A stretch of DNA of 30,815 nucleotides from the IMG/VR virus record IMGVR_UViG_2531839668_000005; one strand, given 5' to 3'. The translations under genes were made by a program, and so were the position numbers. Numbering within the stretch: position 1 is the stretch's first letter; every line of letters starts with the position of its first letter. The notes under the pieces are model-generated. The model did no database searches. It was not told the origin of the DNA and was given only the letters and a program-made list of their open reading frames with translations. The DNA comes from a virus. Taxonomy: Duplodnaviria; Heunggongvirae; Uroviricota; Caudoviricetes. Below, in pieces: positions 1 to 26,824 of the stretch.

Positions 1-194
1 TTAACGGTATGAGTTCTCACGAATAGCCGATTTGCAAATTGTATCAAAAGACAACAAATTTCTCAGTTCAACTCCCTATTGGTAACTGAACTCATAGATA
101 AGGTCCGTTATGCTTTTCATAGGTAGACGAATACGGTAACTTTTCTCAATAGCACGATTCTATCCGCAGTACCAGCATAGGTGGAGAATGGATT

Positions 195-1040
195 TTGAAC
201 AATTGGTCACCAGAGCATACAAAAGTCATCAAGAGCTGGTTTAAGATTGATACATATCGCAAATTTGAAGACCTCTCATTGATTCAGTTCTACCATGAGA
301 TATGGGCCCGTAAATTGTTCTTTAAGGAGTATCGGGAAGAGTTTGAGAGCAGAGCACTTGCGGGTTACTTCTCAAAAATTTTTAGTGGCAATCCTTTTTT
401 AATTGAAGAAGGACAACTGGGATACATGACTCCTGCCAACAAACTTTTTCAACCTCCCCATTTCTTTCTCACAACTCTTGATCGCCTTGCTGAAACGAGC
501 ATTATTGCAATGCAACGTGGAGGTTTTCTTTGGCATGAAGGTGACAATTATTCTATAAACGCAGAGCTTCGAGAAGAATCACTTTCAGACATTATGCCAG
601 ATCAGTTTACACGAACGATCATGTTCGAGATTGATCTGGCAAGTGGCACAGACGAAGAGATTGCAGAGTCGCTTAAAGCTGCATTACCGCAGTGGCGTAA
701 AGTTAAGGGTATTGATGAAAACCCATTGGAATCTGTTCGTTTTGGATACGGAACTATCAAGAAACTCATCAGTTATCGTGTAATACCTATGCTTGATATC
801 CTGGTGTGGGCAGCCGTTAAAAAAATCCGTGTCTCTGACGACAGGTTATCCAGACTACTATATACAGACGATGACGAAGAAAGCGAAATGAGACAGTCCA
901 GCCAAATCAAAGATACCGACAGGCCTTTGGCTCTTAAATCCTGCACAACTGACTTTATCCGACAATTCCATTACTTCATGAACAAAAACAGCCATTTAAA
1001 GCAAATGAAAGTCTCTGATGTAATGAAACTATCGGATTAA
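195..1040 (+). CDS. hypothetical protein (281 aa)
   Basis: Long ORF in the track; TTG start at 195 preceded by GGTGGAG; followed by a hairpin plus T-run at 1086-1116. No family recognised. Confidence 0.45.
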   Translation: MNNWSPEHTKVIKSWFKIDTYRKFEDLSLIQFYHEIWARKLFFKEYREEFESRALAGYFSKIFSGNPFLIEEGQLGYMTPANKLFQPPHFFLTTLDRLAETSIIAMQRGGFLWHEGDNYSINAELREESLSDIMPDQFTRTIMFEIDLASGTDEEIAESLKAALPQWRKVKGIDENPLESVRFGYGTIKKLISYRVIPMLDILVWAAVKKIRVSDDRLSRLLYTDDDEESEMRQSSQIKDTDRPLALKSCTTDFIRQFHYFMNKNSHLKQMKVSDVMKLSD

Positions 1041-1085
1041 GAGTTAATTAATAACTGTCTGTTTTTTTATTATAAAAATAAACTA

Positions 1086-1116
1086 AAAGCACTACTGTAA
1101 ATGGTGCTTTTTTTTG
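1086..1116 (+). terminator. Rho-independent terminator candidate
   Basis: AAAGCAC...GTGCTTT inverted repeat followed by a run of T immediately downstream of the 195-1040 ORF. Confidence 0.5.
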
Positions 1117-1322
1117 CGATTTTTACTTTAAACCGGCCATTTTTACACTTGCTATAAAACAGGGGAATTTCAGCTACTCTCAAGTTCCCTTGTTCTGTAC
1201 TGCACCAACTTCGAGAAAACCATCCTGCACAGCAGCGAAGAACCTCCGCTTCAGGAGCTTCGCTCCTTTCTTTTCCCAACTGCTCGTATAGTGACTTCAC
1301 CGCAACGACAAGGGATAACGAA

Positions 1323-1529
1323 ATGAAAAATCAAGCAACCCGCCTCATACGCTTACCAGAAGTTCTCGAACGAACTGGCTACGGAAAAGCCTGGATCTAT
1401 CGTCTGATCAACGATGGCAAGTTTCCTGCTCCTGTCAAAATTGGAAGTCGTGCAATAGCTTTCGTTGAAAGTGAGATTGATAGCTGGATTCAGTCTGTTA
1501 TCGAAACAAGTCGAAATAATGTTGCTTAA
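1323..1529 (+). CDS. alpA: AlpA-family phage/island transcriptional regulator (excisionase-like HTH)
   Basis: 68 aa; sequence RLIRLPEVLERTGYGKAWIYRLINDGKFPAPVKIGSRAIAF is the characteristic AlpA/Xis-type helix-turn-helix of P4-like islands such as CP4-57. Confidence 0.8.
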   Translation: MKNQATRLIRLPEVLERTGYGKAWIYRLINDGKFPAPVKIGSRAIAFVESEIDSWIQSVIETSRNNVA

Positions 1530-1549
1530 TTGAATTTAGGAGAGATTTT

Positions 1550-1849
1550 ATGACTATCGAAGAATTTGTGAATGAAGAAAACCATATGTGTAATCTGGGC
1601 CAGGAACTATTCTTTAAAATTTTCGAGCCTGAATCGATTTATAATTTACCCAATAACGAGTTTAATAAAGAAATAATATATTGGCTCAGTCAGTATCTTG
1701 TCGGAAATTTGATACAACCTTTAGACGCGATCTCAGAGCTTAATGCTTCCAAACAAATATATGTTTACGAGACTTGGTTTTCGCTAATTAAATGCCCTGA
1801 TGAAATGAAACTCTTGGCGAAGCGGATAATTGAATATTTATTGGATTAA
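1550..1849 (+). CDS. hypothetical protein (99 aa)
   Basis: ORF beginning 21 bp after alpA with GGAGAG upstream of the ATG; no family recognised. Confidence 0.4.
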   Translation: MTIEEFVNEENHMCNLGQELFFKIFEPESIYNLPNNEFNKEIIYWLSQYLVGNLIQPLDAISELNASKQIYVYETWFSLIKCPDEMKLLAKRIIEYLLD

Positions 1850-2061
1850 GAAATTCATATGGCAATGCAAAGTTTTGCTGCATATTTTAGATTAAAACGT
1901 TAAAGAATAACTTGCATTATTTTTATGACCGTTCTTTTGCAAGGCAGTGAGATGGTTTTAGGTGGGTTGGGTGTGCATAATATTAATAGTGTTAGGACGG
2001 TTTTTAGTATTAAGAAGTAATAATAATAGCCATTGGTGAAAATTATGACGGGATTTTTACC

Positions 2062-2373
2062 ATGACATTTCATATTAATAAGTATAGGAAAGTTAAAATG
2101 AATAATTCAATCATAGTACCAGAAGATAAAGATTTTGTATGTGCGTTTGCGACTTCACCGAATAGCTTTTATGAGGCTATTGAATCCTATCGTAATTATG
2201 TAGATCTAGTCCAAGAGATAGAGTTCGAGCACGTCTTTCTTTATTTATTGTTTTCTATAGTGGTCAATGGTAGTACAGATATTACGATTAATGATGAAGT
2301 ACGAATGTGTATTGAGCAGCTTGTCTATGAAAAAAATAGTATCAGAAATAATAATGCAGATAAAAAGATGTAA
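2062..2373 (+). CDS. hypothetical protein (103 aa; true start may be the internal ATG near 2098)
   Basis: ORF in AT-rich DNA; no family recognised. Confidence 0.35.
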   Translation: MTFHINKYRKVKMNNSIIVPEDKDFVCAFATSPNSFYEAIESYRNYVDLVQEIEFEHVFLYLLFSIVVNGSTDITINDEVRMCIEQLVYEKNSIRNNNADKKM

Positions 2374-2544
2374 AGGCTGTAATAAATTATCATGGGTACA
2401 GACAGCACAAGTCTGTACCTTCTTATTTTAATTCAACAGATAATGATACATGAAAATTATGTGCTTTTGATAGTGGTCATCTGGTTTTCTATAGTAAACA
2501 TTATAGGATATAGGTTATCCTGAATTTTAATATTATGCTCTTTT

Positions 2545-2850
2545 TTATTTAAAAGAGCTGAAAAATACAGGATTTAAATGGTGTTGGTATTTAAACTCAG
2601 TAGGTATAGTAACACTCGCATCAATCAGTTCTGTGATAGCCTGATAAAATTGAGTGGGTGTAATATGTATCCCTTCTTGCTGTGCTATGGGCGTAACACG
2701 ATGAAAAATTAGGTAAACAATGCTCTTATCTGGCTTATACGACGCGATTAATGTAAGCAACCAGAATACATTGTGAATAGTAGTGTTAAGATTATGACTT
2801 TCAACTGATGATTGATTATTTTGAAAGTAAGTGGAGAGTCTTTTTTGCAT
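2545..2850 (-). CDS. hypothetical protein (101 aa)
   Basis: ORF immediately downstream of 2915-3478 on the same strand; no family recognised. Confidence 0.3.
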   Translation of the reverse strand: MQKRLSTYFQNNQSSVESHNLNTTIHNVFWLLTLIASYKPDKSIVYLIFHRVTPIAQQEGIHITPTQFYQAITELIDASVTIPTEFKYQHHLNPVFFSSFK

Positions 2851-2914
2851 AAAGGTATCGTTTTTTTGTTAATGTTATCACTCGCGTGGAGAAAATTACC
2901 ACGCTGTAATGTTT

Positions 2915-3478
2915 TTAAAATGGAATGCCGTCTGCAGGATTTCGTCTTCTGGAGTTTTTAACTGATTTTGTTTTACTCCAGGCACGATAAAAATTAAACG
3001 AATTGGCAAAATCTTCTGTCTCCAGTCTGGATTTTCTGAATTTATCCATCAGATCTTCATTGAAACGACGAGGAATTCCCTTAACGCACAAGTTTGAATT
3101 CAGATATACCTGATTATCTATGGTGTCACGAATAAGTATTTTTTTTCCAAATAACTCTTTGAATGCACGTGAAACATTTGATTTATTCAGCCCAAGCTCT
3201 TTGGCAGTACGTGACTGTGAAAAATCAGGAATAATATTACCGTAATCAATGGCTGAGAAGAGATAAATCACAATTCTAAATGCTGTAGGCGTCAAATCCA
3301 TTCTGGCGAGTGTCGCCATATTACCTTTAAATACCATTGAGAAATCGTCCTTGAAGGACGTCTTTTTATAGCTGGTTGCTTTAATTTTTATTTCTTCTAG
3401 ATCTTCGGGCATAACCTCTAATGCTTCTGCAATAATGGATTTTTGTTCTTTAGTTAATACAACACTTGTGATTGACAT
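2915..3478 (-). CDS. putative winged-helix/HTH DNA-binding protein (replication-initiator-like or regulator)
   Basis: 187 aa; segment AKELGLNKSNVSRAFKELFGKKIL resembles an HTH recognition helix; three iteron-like direct repeats lie about 450 bp away. Confidence 0.45.
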   Translation of the reverse strand: MSITSVVLTKEQKSIIAEALEVMPEDLEEIKIKATSYKKTSFKDDFSMVFKGNMATLARMDLTPTAFRIVIYLFSAIDYGNIIPDFSQSRTAKELGLNKSNVSRAFKELFGKKILIRDTIDNQVYLNSNLCVKGIPRRFNEDLMDKFRKSRLETEDFANSFNFYRAWSKTKSVKNSRRRNPADGIPF

Positions 3479-16927: not shown

Positions 16928-18157
16928 TTATGCGGCAATAACTTTGTATTTTTGAGACGAAACATAGTCACTCCACCATTGCATGAGAACCACACGTTCT
17001 GTGAGATACTCTGCACGATTGTAGGCTGCAATTATTTCATCTTTTTTCGAGTGGGCAAGGGCGGCTTCTAAGACATCAGTTCTAAACTTGCCACACTCCT
17101 CAGCCGCCGTTCTAGCGATTGATCGCATACCATGAGCTACAAGCTCACCTCCGAAGCCCATACGGATTATAGCCGCATTAGCTGTTTGTTCATGCATGTG
17201 ATTGAGTGGAGCTTTGATACTGGGAAAAACCCACTCTCTATGCCCGCTGATGGCTTTCATTGAATCCAAGACTCGCAAAGATTCTTTGCTCAGTGGAACT
17301 TTGTGAGGCTTCTTCATTTTCATAAACTCCGCCGGGATGTTCCACATGCTGGTTTCTATATCAATATCTGACCATCTTGTGCGAACAGCTTCACCAGGGC
17401 GAACCCATGTGAGAAGTTGCCACTCAATCAGTAGCCTTGTTTCTAAACGGATAGAAGCATTGTTTAGAGCAACCAGGAAGCGGGGGAGTTCGGAAGGGGG
17501 TAATGCTGGCATATTCTGTTTTTTTGGCTTGCTGAACCGTTGCCCCAGGTTGTCAGCCGGATTGAATTCTATGAGTTCTTCTGTTGCTGCATAGCGGAAA
17601 ATTTCATTCAGGCGGGATATGACGCGGCGAAGTGTTTCAAGGACACCTCGTTTTTCTATGGGGTCTAAATGCTGTTTAAGCATTTTAGGGCGAATCTCCT
17701 TAATGGGGGTATCACCCAACGTTGGAAAGATATTTCTCTCTAGGCTTCGCCAGATGTCGTTAGCATGATCCTGGGAGATGCCTGACGTTTTGACTTTCTC
17801 ATCAAGCCACTTCTTGGCTACTGCTTGAAATGTATGTTCCGTTGCATCCTTAAGGGCATTGGCTTTGTGGGTGTTATGAACTTGTGGGTCTATACCATTT
17901 GCAAGCAACGACAAGTACTCATCACGTAAAGCTCGTGCCTTCGCAAGTGTAAGGTGAGGATAGGTTCCTAAGCTCACCTTAGTTCGCTTTTTGGTCACAG
18001 GCACTGCATATCTGAAATACCAATTTTTCTTTCCTCCCTTCGCTAAGGGGGCGATTCGCAGGAGCAAACCATCGCCGTCAAAAAGGTTAACCTCTTTCTC
18101 GGCAGGTTTGGTGCTTTTGATTTCAGTGTCAGTGAGCTTCTTAGCGATTTTTGCCAT
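16928..18157 (-). CDS. int: P4-type tyrosine integrase
   Basis: From the ATG at 18155-18157: MAKIAKKLTDTEIKSTKPAEK...GLLLRIAP...WYFRY... N-terminal arm-binding domain and C-terminal HGMRS...Y catalytic region typical of P4/CP4-57 integrases; adjacent to the ssrA-derived att repeat. Confidence 0.85.
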   Translation of the reverse strand: MAKIAKKLTDTEIKSTKPAEKEVNLFDGDGLLLRIAPLAKGGKKNWYFRYAVPVTKKRTKVSLGTYPHLTLAKARALRDEYLSLLANGIDPQVHNTHKANALKDATEHTFQAVAKKWLDEKVKTSGISQDHANDIWRSLERNIFPTLGDTPIKEIRPKMLKQHLDPIEKRGVLETLRRVISRLNEIFRYAATEELIEFNPADNLGQRFSKPKKQNMPALPPSELPRFLVALNNASIRLETRLLIEWQLLTWVRPGEAVRTRWSDIDIETSMWNIPAEFMKMKKPHKVPLSKESLRVLDSMKAISGHREWVFPSIKAPLNHMHEQTANAAIIRMGFGGELVAHGMRSIARTAAEECGKFRTDVLEAALAHSKKDEIIAAYNRAEYLTERVVLMQWWSDYVSSQKYKVIAA

Positions 18158-18323
18158 GTTTGGGACCCTCATGTTTTGGACCCTTTGTGTTGGGTCCCAA
18201 AAAGGGTGCCATAACGAGTAGATTCTAGCAATTCTCGGTAGACTACTATAGACGTAAAAAAGCCCGCAAGGCTGGTTCCATGCGGGCTTGATAGACTTCA
18301 CTGAACTTCAATATATCAAAAAT

Positions 18324-19130: not shown

Positions 19131-20147
19131 TTACCTCAAATTAAATAAAGGATTTTTAGTTACGGCATCTTCTAAATGGTCTGGGGCGAAGTGTGCATAG
19201 ACCATGGTCATTTTTATATCTGAATGTCCTAGGATATCCCGCAAAACCAATATGTTTCCACCATTCATCATAAAATGGCTAGCGAATGTATGACGCAGAA
19301 CGTGAGTACATTGACCCTCTGGCAGATCGATACCAGCCCGCTTTACTGCACGCTCAAAGGCTTTTCTGCATGGGGTGAATAACTTCCCCCTATTCTTAGG
19401 CAGTTCTTCATATAAATCCTTAGAAATAGGCACAGTTCGGTTTTTCTTGCCTTTGGTCTTGGTATAAGTGATACGGTATTTTGATACCTGATGACTCTGC
19501 AGGTTTTCGGCTTCGCTCCAGCGTGCGCCGGTGGCCAGGCATATTTTTGCAATCAAAAGCAGGCTGGAGCTTTGAGAATCGGCGCAGGCATCCAGCAGAC
19601 GTTTAATTTCTTCCGGGGTCAGGAACGCCAATTCACTCTCAGCAATTTTAAATGTTGGCAGCCCAGCAAGCGGGTTGGGGGCTGACCAGTGGCCCAGCTT
19701 TTTCAGCGTACCAAAAACAGATGATAGATTGCGCTGTTCAAGGTTTACCGTGCGGGGCTTAACGGGCGACATAAACGTGCCATCTTCATTTCGTACTTCA
19801 CCTTTTAACCGTGCTTCGCGGTATTTCGTAAAGTCACCGGCTGTCAGTTCTGAGGCGATGGGGTCGCCTAGACCATTACAGATAATTCTAAGTTTCGCCA
19901 TGAGGCGCTTGGGGTCTGCGAGTGTCTGACCATACAGGGAATACCAAAGCTCAATTAATTCTGATAGGTGTCGCCGATCATCCTTTTCTCCTAACCACGG
20001 TTTTTTGTTCACTTCTTCCATTGTGAAGCTTTCAAATGCAATGGCTTCGCCTTTGGTAGCAAATTGCTTACGCACGCGCTTACCATTGCGTCCATTGGGA
20101 TAGCACTCACACAACCATTTTCCGTTCGGCTGTTTTCTGATGGTCAT
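19131..20147 (-). CDS. int: P2/186-type phage tyrosine integrase
   Basis: N-terminus ...YPNGRNGKRVRKQFATKGEAIAFE... and C-terminal HVLRHTFASHFMMNGG...LGHSDIKMTMVYAH catalytic region; followed by the CI repressor gene on the same strand. Confidence 0.85.
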   Translation of the reverse strand: MTIRKQPNGKWLCECYPNGRNGKRVRKQFATKGEAIAFESFTMEEVNKKPWLGEKDDRRHLSELIELWYSLYGQTLADPKRLMAKLRIICNGLGDPIASELTAGDFTKYREARLKGEVRNEDGTFMSPVKPRTVNLEQRNLSSVFGTLKKLGHWSAPNPLAGLPTFKIAESELAFLTPEEIKRLLDACADSQSSSLLLIAKICLATGARWSEAENLQSHQVSKYRITYTKTKGKKNRTVPISKDLYEELPKNRGKLFTPCRKAFERAVKRAGIDLPEGQCTHVLRHTFASHFMMNGGNILVLRDILGHSDIKMTMVYAHFAPDHLEDAVTKNPLFNLR

Positions 20148-20150
20148 AAG

Positions 20151-20789
20151 TTAGAGGTTCTTGATTACTTTGACTGCACGTCCTACAACTTCCACATCAT
20201 CTACAGAACATTCAAATGAAGTGTCATCTTGGCTAACTACTATTTTGTTTCCGGGTATGCGCGCAATTTTGACGATGCTTTTAACTCCGTCCATATCGAC
20301 TAACCAGAAGCCATTACTGACTTGTTTAACGGACGTATCCACTACAAAGCTATTATTAGCTGTTTTAACAAATAAAGCGTTGGATGAGTCACCATCGAGC
20401 AGGCTGCTATCAAGAAGAATTTCATCACTTGCCTGCAGTTCGCCGTTCTTCAGTTCAACACGTTTGATGCTAGGAGCAACGATCTTAGAAAGTGGTCTTA
20501 CAGTGACGGGAGGTTCATTTTTGAGATTTGTTTCTTCGTTCTCACACGCATACATATCTCCTTGACCAGTAGCCAGCCATAGAAGGGAAGCTCCTGTTTC
20601 AAGGGCACATTGAATTACCCATTCGGCAGGAAAGCTATCCCTTAAGTATCTGTTAGCCATAGTGCTTTTGGATACTTCCAGATGTTCGCAGAGCTGCTGT
20701 CGTGAGCTGAAGTTGTAAGCCTTAATAAGCCTGTTAATTGCATCGCGCCCACCACTATCATTTCCCGCTTTGATTAAACTCATAATCAA
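20151..20789 (-). CDS. cI: 186-like CI immunity repressor
   Basis: CALETGASLLWLATGQGDMY and C-terminal WLVDMDGVKSIVKIARIPGNK...FECSVDDVEVVGRAVKV closely resemble phage 186 CI as recalled. Confidence 0.75.
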   Translation of the reverse strand: MIMSLIKAGNDSGGRDAINRLIKAYNFSSRQQLCEHLEVSKSTMANRYLRDSFPAEWVIQCALETGASLLWLATGQGDMYACENEETNLKNEPPVTVRPLSKIVAPSIKRVELKNGELQASDEILLDSSLLDGDSSNALFVKTANNSFVVDTSVKQVSNGFWLVDMDGVKSIVKIARIPGNKIVVSQDDTSFECSVDDVEVVGRAVKVIKNL

Positions 20790-20899: not shown

Positions 20900-21058
20900 A
20901 TGAGTACTGATATTTCAATTCGTGTACCAAAAGAGATGGCAACGCCTGCTGAGTTCGCTGAATGGGAAGGTATCTCCCGCGGCTCTGTGTATCAAAAAAT
21001 TCACCATGGTCAGCTTGCTAAATACATGGTCAAGAAGGAAAAAACAAAGGCCGCGTAA
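20900..21058 (+). CDS. Apl/Cox-like small HTH excision-regulatory protein (52 aa)
   Basis: Small ORF, not in the supplied track, at the position of apl/cox in P2/186-like phages; translated by eye as MSTDISIRVPKEMATPAEFAEWEGISRGSVYQKIHHGQLAKYMVKKEKTKAA. Confidence 0.5.
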   Translation: MSTDISIRVPKEMATPAEFAEWEGISRGSVYQKIHHGQLAKYMVKKEKTKAA

Positions 21059-22974: not shown

Positions 22975-23828
22975 GCACCATCCTGAAATGGGCGGGAAAT
23001 AAAACCGCCATTATGTCCGAACTGAAAAAACACCTTCCTGCTGGCCCGCGACTGGTTGAACCTTTCGCGGGTTCCTGTGCTGTGATGATGGAGACGGATT
23101 ACCCCAGCTATCTGGTTGCGGATATTAATCCTGATTTAATCAACCTCTATAAAAAGGTTGCTGCTGATTGTGAATCGTTTATATCTCGCGCCAGAGTTTT
23201 ATTTGAGATCGCAAACAGGGAGGTGGCTTATTACAACATAAGGCAGGAGTTTAATTACTCCACTGAAATTACTGATTTCATGAAAGCGGTATATTTCCTG
23301 TATCTCAATCGTCACGGTTACCGTGGTTTATGTCGCTATAACAAGAGCGGGCATTTCAACATTCCCTACGGTAATTATAAAAATCCGTATTTCCCTGAAA
23401 AAGAAATTCGCGCATTTGCAGAAAAGGCCCAGCGAGCAACGTTTATCTGCGCCAGCTTTGATGAAACGCTGGCGATGTTGAAGGCGGGGGATGTGGTGTA
23501 TTGCGATCCGCCGTATGACGGTACGTTTTCCGGCTATCACACTGATGGTTTCACTGAAGATGACCAGTATCACCTGGCATCTGTTCTTGAACATCGGTCA
23601 TCAGAAGGACATCCGGTCATTGTTTCTAACAGTGACACATCCCTGATCCGTTCGCTGTATCGCAATTTTACTCACCACTACATCAAGGCAAAACGCAGCA
23701 TCGGTGTGGCAGCTGGCGAGGGTAAATCAGCAACAGAAATCATTGCTGTTTCCGGGCCGCGCTGCTGGGTGGGATTTGATTATTCGCGTGGCGTGGATAG
23801 TTCTGCCGTGTACGGAGTACGTGCATGA
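22971..23828 (+). CDS. dam: DNA adenine methyltransferase (Dam-like, N6-adenine, DPPY motif)
   Basis: [11 protein letters not shown]...FAGSCAV (AdoMet-binding region) and YCDPPYDG catalytic motif; GGAGG upstream of the ATG at 22971; stop overlaps the gene A start (ATGA). Confidence 0.85.
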
Positions 23829-26239
23829 GCCATGCCGATATGAACAACTGCTGCGGCTTTAACGAGGCTGCCGCATCGTTCTCATGGAACAGCCCGAAAA
23901 AGGCCATTAACCCTTATCTGGACCCGGCGGAAGTTGCGCCGGTTTCTGCGCTTTCAAACCTGATCACTCTGTACGCTGCCGATAACGAGCAGGAACAGCT
24001 GCGCCGCGAGGCACTGAGTGATCAGGTCTGGGAGCGTTATTTCTTTAATGAATCCCGTGATCCTGTCCAGCGCGAAATGGAGCAGGATAAGCTCATTAGT
24101 CGGGCAAAGCTGGCGCATGAGCAGCAGCGTTTTAATCCAGATATGGTCATTCTGGCGGACGTCAATGCCCAGCCTTCCCATATCAGCAAGCCGCTGATGC
24201 AACGTATTGAATACTTCAGCAGCCTGGGCAGGCCAAAGGCTTATTCCCGCTATTTGCGTGAGACGATTAAGCCATGTCTGGAACGACTGGAGCATGTACG
24301 CGACAGTCAGCTATCCGCTTCTTTTCGCTTTATGGCAAGCCATGAAGGGCTGGATGGCCTGCTTATCCTGCCTGAAATGAGTCAGGATCAGGTGAAGCGC
24401 CTGTCTACCCTTGTCGCTGCGCATATGAGCATGTGCCTTGATGCAGCTTGTGGTGATTTGTATGCCACCGATGACGTTAAGCCAGAAGAAATCCGCAAGA
24501 CATGGGAAAAGGTGGCAGCGGAAACCCTGCGTCTGGATGTTATCCCGCCTGCGTTTGAGCAACTCCGTCGGAAAAGAAACCGCCGTAAACCCGTGCCCTA
24601 TGAACTCATTCCGGGTTCGCTGGCGCGTATGTTGTGCGCTGACTGGTGGTACCGGAAATTATGGAAGATGCGTTGCGAATGGCGGGAAGAGCAGTTGCGT
24701 GCTGTCTGCCTGGTCAGCAAAAAAGCATCTCCCTATGTCAGCTATGAAGCCGTGATGCATAAACGTGAGCAGCGCCGTAAGTCGCTGGAGTTTTTTCGTT
24801 CTCATGAACTGGTGAACGAAGACGGCGACACGCTGGACATGGAGGATGTGGTAAACGCCAGCAGCAGCAACCCTGCGCATCGCCGCAATGAGATGATGGC
24901 CTGTGTTAAAGGCCTGGAGCTTATCGCGGAAATGCGTGGTGACTGCGCCGTTTTCTACACCATTACCTGTCCGTCACGTTTCCATTCCACGCTCAATAAC
25001 GGCAGACCAAACCCAACCTGGACAAATGCGACGGTAAGACAAAGCAGCGATTATCTGGTCGGCATGTTTGCTGCATTTCGTAAGGCGATGCACAAAGCCG
25101 GGTTGCGCTGGTATGGCGTGCGGGTGGCTGAGCCGCATCATGACGGTACGGTTCACTGGCACCTGTTGTGTTTCATGCGCAAAAAAGACCGCCGTGCCAT
25201 TACTGCATTGTTGCGTAAGTTTGCCATCCGTGAAGACCGCGAGGAACTGGGTAATAACACTGGTCCACGCTTTAAATCTGAGCTGATAAACCCGCGCAAA
25301 GGAACACCGACAAGCTACATCGCGAAATACATTAGTAAGAACATTGACGGGCGTGGTCTGGCTGGCGAGATCAGCAAGGAAACGGGTAAATCCCTGCGTG
25401 ATAACGCTGAATACGTTAATGCCTGGGCGTCTCTGCATCGTGTTCAGCAATTCCGCTTCTTTGGTATTCCGGGGCGTCAGGCTTACCGTGAACTGCGATT
25501 GCTGGCTGGTCAGGCGGCAAGGCAACAGGGCGACAAAAAAGCAGGTGCGCCGGTACTGGATAACCCGCGCCTTGATGCCATCCTGGCTGCTGCTGATGCT
25601 GGTTGTTTTGCCACTTACATCATGAAGCAGGGTGGTGTACTGGTTCCCCGCAAATATCACCTCATCAGAACTGCTTATGAAATTAACGAAGAGCCGACCG
25701 CCTATGGCGATCACGGCATTCGTATTTATGGCATCTGGTCACCCATTGCAGAGGGCAAGATCTGCACTCATGCAGTGAAGTGGAAAATGGTTCGTAAAGC
25801 CGTTGACGTTCAGGAGGCGGTAGCCGACCAGGGCGCTTGCGCCCCTTGGACTCGTGGCAATAACTGTCCCCTTGCTGAAAATTTGTACCAACAAGGGAAA
25901 GACAAATCAGCTGATGGAGATACCAGAACGGATATCACCCGCATGGATGACAAGGAGTTGCACGATTACCTGCACAGTATGAGCAAAAAAGAGCGCCGGG
26001 AACTGGCAGCAAGGTTACGCCTGGTGAAACCGAAACGGCGTAAAGACTACAAACAGCGAATTACAGATCATCAGCGACAGCAGCTCGTGTATGAACTGAA
26101 GTCCAGGGGATTTGATGGCAGCGAGAAAGAGGTCGATTTACTGCTTCGCGGCGGCAGTATTCCGTCAGGAGCAGGCCTGCGTATCTTCTATCGGAACCAG
26201 CGTTTGCAGGAAGATGATAAGTGGCGAAACCTGTATTAA
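23825..26239 (+). CDS. P2/186 gene-A-type rolling-circle replication initiator (HUH endonuclease)
   Basis: HWHLLCF (HUH motif) and SYIAKYISK (catalytic tyrosine motif); roughly 800 aa, as for P2 gpA. Confidence 0.85.
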
Positions 26240-26331
26240 TTACGCGGGTTAACAATTCGTGCTCTTAATAATACCAGGCATATCAGGCCGATGAGCGTAA
26301 AAAAACGTTTTACATCAGTAAGATTATTATA

Positions 26332-26351
26332 TACTGTAAATATAAACAGTG
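26332..26351. promoter_or_regulatory. LexA (SOS) box
   Basis: taCTGTaaatataaACAGtg: exact CTGT-N8-ACAG with an AT-rich spacer, about 40 bp upstream of the 26392 ORF. Confidence 0.6.
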
Positions 26352-26391
26352 GTTATTTATACAGTATTTCTTTGGTGTTATAGGAGGAAAG

Positions 26392-26580
26392 ATGCAGGAC
26401 TATTTTTTGGAGTCTTTGAAGCTCCAGCGCATTGATTTTTTTCTTAAGCTTGTAGCGGCTAGTGAGTGTAGTGATGAAGAGAAGGGGCTGGCTTTGCAGT
26501 GGGTTTCTGAACTGACAGATGAACTCATGGCAAAAATCAGAACCCACGAATACAACCGCTCAATGGATGTCATCAGTTGA
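26392..26580 (+). CDS. hypothetical protein, possibly the N-terminal part of a Tum-type SOS-inducible antirepressor
   Basis: GGAGG before the ATG; immediately downstream of the LexA box; overlaps the upstream extension of the DinI-like ORF in another frame. Confidence 0.4.
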   Translation: MQDYFLESLKLQRIDFFLKLVAASECSDEEKGLALQWVSELTDELMAKIRTHEYNRSMDVIS

Positions 26581-26590
26581 GGTGACTTTT

Positions 26591-26824
26591 ATGCGCATTG
26601 AAATAATGATCGATAAAGAGCAGAAGATTAGCCAGTCTACCCTGGACGCCTTTGAATCCGAGCTTTACCGCAATCTGCGCCCCCTGTATCCCAAAACGGT
26701 AATTCGTATCCGTAAAGGTAGCTCTAACGGTGTGGAACTGACCGGACTGCAACTGGACGAAGAAAGGAAACAAGTAATGAAAATTATGCAGAAGGTGTGG
26801 GAAGACGACAGCTGGCTGCATTAA
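26591..26824 (+). CDS. DinI-family protein (Tum C-terminal-domain-like)
   Basis: MRIEIMIDKEQ...YPKTVIRIRKGSSNGVELTG...VWEDDSWL parallels E. coli DinI (MRIEVTIAK...VSVRYAAANNLSVIG...TWESADDWF) as recalled. Confidence 0.7.
   Translation: MRIEIMIDKEQKISQSTLDAFESELYRNLRPLYPKTVIRIRKGSSNGVELTGLQLDEERKQVMKIMQKVWEDDSWLH

Follow-up and report, generated by a model that had tools for sequence, protein, structure and literature searches.

A probable two-cistron SOS operon (tumA-tumB) downstream of gene A in a Fels-2/186-like prophage of Escherichia coli

Genomic setting of the locus

The window analysed here, i.e. the whole stretch of 30,815 nucleotides of IMG/VR virus record IMGVR_UViG_2531839668_000005, was found to carry, from about 19.1 kb rightward, a prophage of the P2 family with a lysis-lysogeny switch of the 186 type. 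Its integrase gene (19131-20147, minus strand) is followed by that of a CI repressor of the 186 type (20151-20789, minus strand), which shows 93% normalised similarity to the CI of phage Fels-2. Only the domains Phage_CI_repr and Phage_CI_C were identified in this protein with Pfam, the self-cleavage domain Peptidase_S24 not being found, as expected for a repressor of the 186 type, on which Tum acts, that has no autocleavage domain. The immunity region was also found to encode Apl (20900-21058), CII, Fil and a Dam-type methylase. Replication gene A is located at 23825-26239 and directly after it lie a LexA box, ORF1 (26392-26580, plus strand, 62 aa) and ORF2 (26591-26824, plus strand, 77 aa), occupying the slot that is held in phage 186 by promoter p95, its LexA site and tum. 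P2 itself is, to our knowledge, not SOS-inducible. The two ORFs do not overlap and are separated by 10 nt. A preliminary description of the locus had given these ORF coordinates along with a CTGT-N8-ACAG box at 26334-26349, all of which were found to hold, and its identification of a putatively LexA-controlled, Tum-related region within a 186-like prophage was also correct.

The region that adjoins the P2-like prophage directly on its left (15731-18301) was found to encode a serine recombinase (15731-16651, minus strand) and another tyrosine integrase, whose arm-binding domain is of the P4 type (16928-18301, minus strand). This suggests that a further mobile element is inserted there in tandem. 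No tRNA gene was detected in the whole window using ARAGORN.

To the right of ORF2, the sequence just after its stop codon (GAAACGTTGC..GGCGT) was conserved in relatives. Neither an intrinsic terminator nor a consensus promoter was found at 26825-27094, between ORF2 and the downstream cargo genes on the same strand, so that transcription from the SOS promoter might extend into this cargo, as it does into orf97 in phage 186. A genuine frameshift was identified at 27443-27449, where the window has a run of seven T residues and E. coli O157:H16 98-3133 has eight. It divides an otherwise intact 280-aa gene (WP_000212611, phrog_3630; 27310-28151) between one ORF of 56 aa (27310-27480) and another of 224 aa (27477-28151), and is due either to a homopolymer mutation or to an assembly error. 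Two genes lie between ORF2 and the portal gene, at 28478-29497, one for a protein of 138 aa (phrog_25392) and the other for a protein of 200 aa with a TIR domain (Pfam TIR_2, E = 3.6e-17) and weak ThsB/SAVED-TIR-like matches in PADLOC; no complete known defence system of PADLOC was matched by these genes. We take this region to be a cargo or defence hotspot of the P2 family.

The LexA box and its promoter

Upstream of ORF1, hexamers TTTACA (26309-26314, plus strand) and TACTGT (26332-26337, plus strand), separated by a spacer of 17 nt, were read from the sequence as the -35 and -10 elements of a p95-like SOS promoter. The -10 hexamer forms the left half of the LexA box TACTGTAAATATAAACAGTG (26332-26351, plus strand), and thus lies beneath it. 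The core of this box, CTGTAAATATAAACAG (26334-26349), is an exact CTGT-N8-ACAG and occurs once in the window. The bare pattern is not significant, at least one match being present in 27 of 100 shuffled sequences. Scored as a 20-mer against the LexA consensus TACTGTATATATATACAGTA, the box shows three mismatches, and a match of this quality was obtained in none of 100 shuffles. The layout matches that annotated for p95 of phage 186 (TTCACA, 18 nt, TACTGT within the LexA site). A strict sigma-70 consensus scan of the region called no promoter, the TTTACA/TACTGT pair included.

Comparison with seven relatives showed that the position of the box is kept and that both of its halves are invariant, with the -35 hexamer being retained in six of the seven. 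This conservation exists although the synonymous divergence of the adjacent genes amounts to 0.5-2. Furthermore, 13 phages with a Tum N-module of one type or another were compared, and the gene for this module proved in every case to be preceded, at a distance of 33-92 nt, by a CTG-N10-CAG box. At the level of sequence, the locus therefore has the LexA box of the PSP3/Fels-2-type two-gene operons, which is a good one placed over the -10 element of a 186-p95-like promoter, and it is predicted to be an operator. By homology, and from the literature on phages 186 and PSP3, LexA would be expected to repress this promoter by binding the box.

A second, degenerate box-like element, CAGTGGTTATTTATACAGTA (26347-26366, plus strand), was identified next to the first. 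It has five mismatches to the LexA consensus and its left half lacks CTG, but its ATACAG (26359-26364) is invariant in the seven ORF1-type relatives amid an otherwise variable 5' untranslated region. A similar element was not found in the promoters of 186, PSP3, ENT90, the Yersinia phages or the ESSI2-type phages. Judged by this comparison, the element appears specific to the Fels-2-type promoter among the types compared and not to be a canonical LexA box.

Two genes or one broken gene

Each of the two ORFs was found to possess its own Shine-Dalgarno sequence and ATG. That of ORF1, AGGAGG (26382-26387, plus strand), is situated 4 nt before the start codon and is invariant in seven relatives, the ATG being invariant as well. 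That of ORF2, GAGGTG (26579-26584, plus strand), was read from the sequence and overlaps the stop codon TGA of ORF1 (26578-26580). The title of the preliminary description had favoured a split or frameshifted tum. On such a reading, the ORFs would be debris of a single 146-aa gene, disrupted either by a frameshift mutation or by an error of sequencing. The features that the description pointed to do exist: the frame of ORF2 remains open as far back as an ATG at 26519, giving 25 stop-free codons before 26591, and a run of five A residues is present within 26519-26580, at 26532-26536. The real homopolymer frameshift 600 nt downstream in the window also speaks for such an event. The chance probability of a 25-codon open stretch was estimated at about 0.3, however, and the corresponding stretch measures only 4-22 codons in relatives; as it shrinks in this way, the open frame upstream of ORF2 carries no signal.

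The junction was compared in six phages, namely the prophage of the window, Fels-2, Yersinia phage MLG42, Klebsiella phages ST437-OXA245phi4.1 and ST13-OXA48phi12.1, and SopEphi. The stop codon of ORF1 and the start codon of ORF2 are present in all six and, with the stop codon at 26578-26580 kept in relatives, there is no single polypeptide of about 146 aa such as Tum of phage 186. The intercistronic spacer was found to be 10, 10, 12, 11, 11 and 13 nt long, meaning that all three relative frames (0, +1 and +2) occur and that the relative frame is not conserved. The purine-rich Shine-Dalgarno sequence of ORF2 is kept despite this change of spacer from 10 to 13 nt. Values of dN/dS, calculated for each ORF in its own frame, ranged from 0.02 to 0.12 (ORF1, 0.03-0.12; ORF2, 0.02-0.10), indicating strong purifying selection on both.

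The two-gene arrangement is also widespread. The locus was found at a coverage of at least 80% in 1083 of 5426 complete E. coli genomes, including BL21, HS, NC101 and LF82, and all matches listed in E. coli are annotated as a 'hypothetical protein' followed by a 'DinI-like family protein'. A copy identical at 100% is present in an independent complete genome, that of E. coli O157:H16 98-3133. Homologues of ORF1 numbered 484 in a large protein collection, and the best 120 of these are 55-109 aa long, with a precomputed DinI Pfam domain in none of the 120; the longer homologues examined proved to be upstream start-codon extensions running through the promoter. Since ORF2, in addition, begins at the Met1 of DinI itself (see below), debris of a broken tum is a most improbable account of the locus, and the natural two-protein arrangement, which the preliminary description had named as its other option, is the one that these data bear out.

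Programmed +1 frameshifting or stop-codon bypass, yielding a minor fused Tum-like protein besides the two separate products, was also considered. A +1 shift anywhere within 26519-26580 would join the frames, and PSP3 and MLG42 have both genes in one frame. The features of such a signal are nevertheless unconserved, whether slippery sequence, relative frame or stimulatory RNA structure. Relatives have A6 or A4 in place of the A5 run, the relative frame varies as described above, and folding of the junction RNA of the six relatives gave a weak consensus (-3.8 kcal/mol) with one compensatory pair only. This weak fold likewise gives no support to occlusion of the Shine-Dalgarno sequence or translational coupling. 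A scan of 26000-27300 against Rfam returned nothing meaningful, and a terminator-like hairpin at the junction of the ORFs (26569-26586) is within chance expectation (0.7 per region). A fused minor product is accordingly very hard to credit. Due to the conservation of the junction, the selection on both ORFs, the variable spacer and the wide occurrence of the locus, frameshift mutation, sequencing error and conserved programmed frameshifting can be regarded as excluded for practical purposes.

One record in the databases is divergent. In Escherichia phage 500465-1 (NC_049342), several single-base indels were observed inside both the tumA and tumB homologues, IS100 fragments are located within gene A, and the coding sequences called by RefSeq in this part (291 and 318 nt) are distorted. 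This record looks like a low-quality or degraded copy.

Relationship of the products to Tum and their predicted roles

ORF2 was identified as a tumB-like gene encoding a complete protein of the DinI family. It matches Pfam DinI (PF06183) over profile positions 1-63 of 63 (E = 1.9e-22), with a score of 79.8 bits against a gathering cut-off of 24.2 bits. Alignment to E. coli DinI (PDB 1GHH, residues 1-77) starts with Met1 of ORF2 at residue 1 and extends over the full length (1-75 against 1-77), including the acidic C-terminal W-E-x-x-D-x-W region. Unlike DinI, however, ORF2 is phage-encoded, and it scores 40.5 bits in the NCBIfam equivalog model, below the cut-off of 111 bits, and is thus a paralogous DinI-like protein and not DinI itself. 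It shares 43% identity with residues 71-145 of Tum of phage 186, which is the span of Tum95.5, a product described in the 186 record as translated separately from an internal GTG. Truncated Tum products are described in the same record as modulating SOS induction. Homology to 1GHH, together with the 186 and PSP3 literature, suggests that the product of ORF2 (TumB) may act on RecA filaments.

ORF1 is 98.4% identical to STM2728 of Fels-2 and belongs to phrog_698. An AlphaFold2 model predicted a two-helix hairpin (helices 2-23 and 28-61, pLDDT 90), for which Foldseek against the PDB returned generic helical hairpins only, all with E values of at least 1 and no informative neighbour; a sequence search of the PDB gave no match. 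No family containing ORF1 was found in Pfam, NCBIfam or PADLOC. No alignment was obtained between ORF1 and 186 Tum using BLASTP, and profile methods were therefore needed. With tblastn, one protein of Yersinia phage vB_YenM_06.16-2, a 'tum protein' of 60 aa, was reached both from ORF1 and from residues 1-70 of 186 Tum. Comparison of strictly separate, independently collected families using hhalign gave P = 3.8e-4 (score 21.9, columns 4-42 against 4-42). When intermediates were included (ESSI2_ev040, Cronobacter ESSI-2, ENT90, Yen324 and Yen06.16-2), ORF1 aligned with the N-terminal half of 186 Tum at 95% probability (E = 2.7e-8, ungapped over columns 1-42) with a score of 39.6, as against about 6 for reversed controls and a maximum of 14.1 among 30 column-shuffled controls.

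Independent PHROG searches agreed with this, residues 7-44 of 186 Tum matching positions 7-44 of phrog_698 (E = 2.4e-5). ORF1 also matched the Yersinia-type family phrog_8554 (E = 2.4e-8), and 186 Tum matched phrog_1993 (E = 1e-22), the family of PSP3 TumA. A joint alignment is ungapped over the 62 residues of ORF1, with E7, L20, C26, A34 and E40-L41 invariant. At the profile level, ORF1 can thus be classed as a remote homologue of the N-terminal module of Tum. The preliminary description had considered that Tum might align to only one of the two ORFs, and this is not so, as ORF2 corresponds to Tum residues 71-145 and ORF1 to residues of about 4-44, the latter at profile level only.

N-modules were also found without an adjacent DinI gene, in ENT90, the Yersinia phages and the ESSI2-type phages, which fits the N-module being an autonomous antirepressor and the DinI-like protein an accessory. 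In the databases, stand-alone 'Tum protein' entries of 63 aa of the 186 subtype, ending in SIVFSAKPIEN, were observed from Salmonella Javiana, Kluyvera, Enterobacter and Edwardsiella, indicating that N-modules without a fused DinI half exist inside the 186 subtype too. When residues 1-70 of 186 Tum were compared with a large database, most of the proteins retrieved were short or truncated, and full-length Tum of 146 aa was not found among them.

The arrangement of two genes is already known, being annotated in PSP3 and covered for both Fels-2 and PSP3 in the literature, and it is very common. The gene pair of the window is nearly identical to that of Fels-2 of Salmonella Typhimurium LT2 (STM2728/STM2726.1), with ORF2 differing from STM2726.1 at one of 77 residues, and the LexA box, 10-nt spacer, position after gene A and CI type (0.93) are the same. 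The two differ in host, Salmonella as opposed to E. coli, and in downstream cargo, which includes the TIR-domain protein in the window. As in PSP3, two adjacent cistrons behind a LexA box, just downstream of gene A, encode an N-module of about 60 aa and a DinI-like protein of 77 aa, and either cistron has a ribosome binding site and start codon of its own. The PSP3 GenBank record describes tumA as 'similar to 5' end 186 tum; UV induction of prophage', thereby making it responsible for UV induction, and tumB as 'similar to dinI and 3' end of 186 tum'. PSP3 TumA nevertheless belongs to another subfamily (phrog_1993; P = 2.8e-6 against the 186 Tum N-module and 0.04-0.08 against ORF1), its CI is a different protein of 286 aa and, unlike in the window, its two genes are in the same frame, with a stop codon plus one extra codon between them. 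According to Lemire et al. 2011 (PMC3121763), who cite Bunny et al. 2002, the tum of Fels-2 and PSP3 is split in two by a stop codon. The same authors report, on the basis of a personal communication from G. E. Christie, that the upstream gene of PSP3 is an antirepressor.

LexA-controlled Tum of phage 186 (146 aa) shares with the window the promoter and box architecture, the genomic position and the CI/Apl/CII switch, the difference being that both modules are fused through a linker of about 25 aa in 186 and encoded by separate cistrons here. The dinI-gfoA and dinI-gftA operons of the Gifsy prophages are likewise driven from a LexA box and encode a small antirepressor and a DinI homologue, but in reversed order with dinI first (PMC3121763). 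The repressors targeted by their antirepressors form a group apart, that of the gfoR/gtgR type, related to DicA and RacR (PMC3121763).

The inferred target of the product of ORF1 (TumA) is the resident CI. Comparison of 186 with PSP3 showed high similarity of gpA (0.86) and low similarity of both CI (0.23) and TumA (0.18), and the opposite pattern was seen between Yen06.16-2 and Yen324. In individual swaps such as that of 186 and PSP3, TumA type thus appears to track CI type where the neighbouring gpA does not, which lends some support to co-variation of the two proteins. A Mantel test gave a correlation of TumA with CI (rho = 0.62, p = 2e-4) that was equalled by that of TumA with gpA (rho = 0.64), and as the global test therefore cannot separate functional coupling from shared ancestry, only the individual swaps are informative. 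A counter-example is ST13-OXA48phi12.1, with a TumA similarity of 0.91 to the window and a CI similarity of only 0.36. The segment of CI with the helix-turn-helix (HTH) is 70-97% identical among the ORF1-type phages, at about 70% in ST13-OXA48phi12.1, and we would guess from this that it could be the place where TumA binds.

These comparisons leave room for ORF1 being a small SOS-induced protein with another role, directed at the repressors of other prophages or at a host target, with induction proceeding via something else. The subfamily is assigned no function by PHROG, Pfam or NCBIfam, and no direct experiment on it (phrog_698) was found in the literature searched. TumA is, in addition, about 90% similar across phages with a strongly different CI, as in ST13-OXA48phi12.1, and crosstalk through trans-acting antirepressors is known in Salmonella (PMC3121763). 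Against this role stand the collinear homology to the N-module of Tum with conserved Cys26, A34 and E40-L41, and the genomic position and LexA control that genes of this kind share across 13 phages, all with a 186-type CI. As Peptidase_S24 was not found in the CI of the window, SOS induction would also need some antirepressor. Such another role is hence considered unlikely, and the homology and the 186/PSP3 literature point to ORF1 as a probable antirepressor of the resident CI.

The locus thus comprises a LexA box, a p95-like promoter architecture and two intact genes under selection, each homologous to one half of Tum, in a prophage with a 186-type CI. It very probably represents a natural two-cistron SOS operon (tumA and tumB), carried in E. 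coli by a prophage of the P2 family (Peduoviridae) that resembles Fels-2 and 186. In the lysogen, LexA bound to the box over the -10 element would keep the promoter off, and self-cleavage of LexA, stimulated by RecA upon DNA damage, would free it. The 62-aa helical-hairpin TumA would then be made, bind the 186-type CI and block its binding to the operators, with the lytic promoter firing as a result, while the separately translated DinI-like TumB may act on RecA filaments and so tune the SOS signal. [quoted passage not shown] 1998, cited in PMC3121763).

More tentatively, and with considerable doubt, the Fels-2-type operon may differ from p95 of 186 in two respects, with 26347-26366 serving as a second regulatory site, be it a weak second LexA half-site or the site of another factor, and the TumA hairpin recognising the conserved HTH domain of CI. 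If TumA did so, one TumA type could induce prophages whose CI proteins differ in their C-terminal domains, and cross-induction between co-resident P2-like prophages might follow.

The upstream gene is still annotated as a 'hypothetical protein', and sometimes as a 'levan regulatory protein', in about one fifth of complete E. coli genomes. It could be renamed as a TumA-like SOS antirepressor, which would be of use for annotation, and the presence of ORF1 would predict P2-like prophages that are SOS-inducible.
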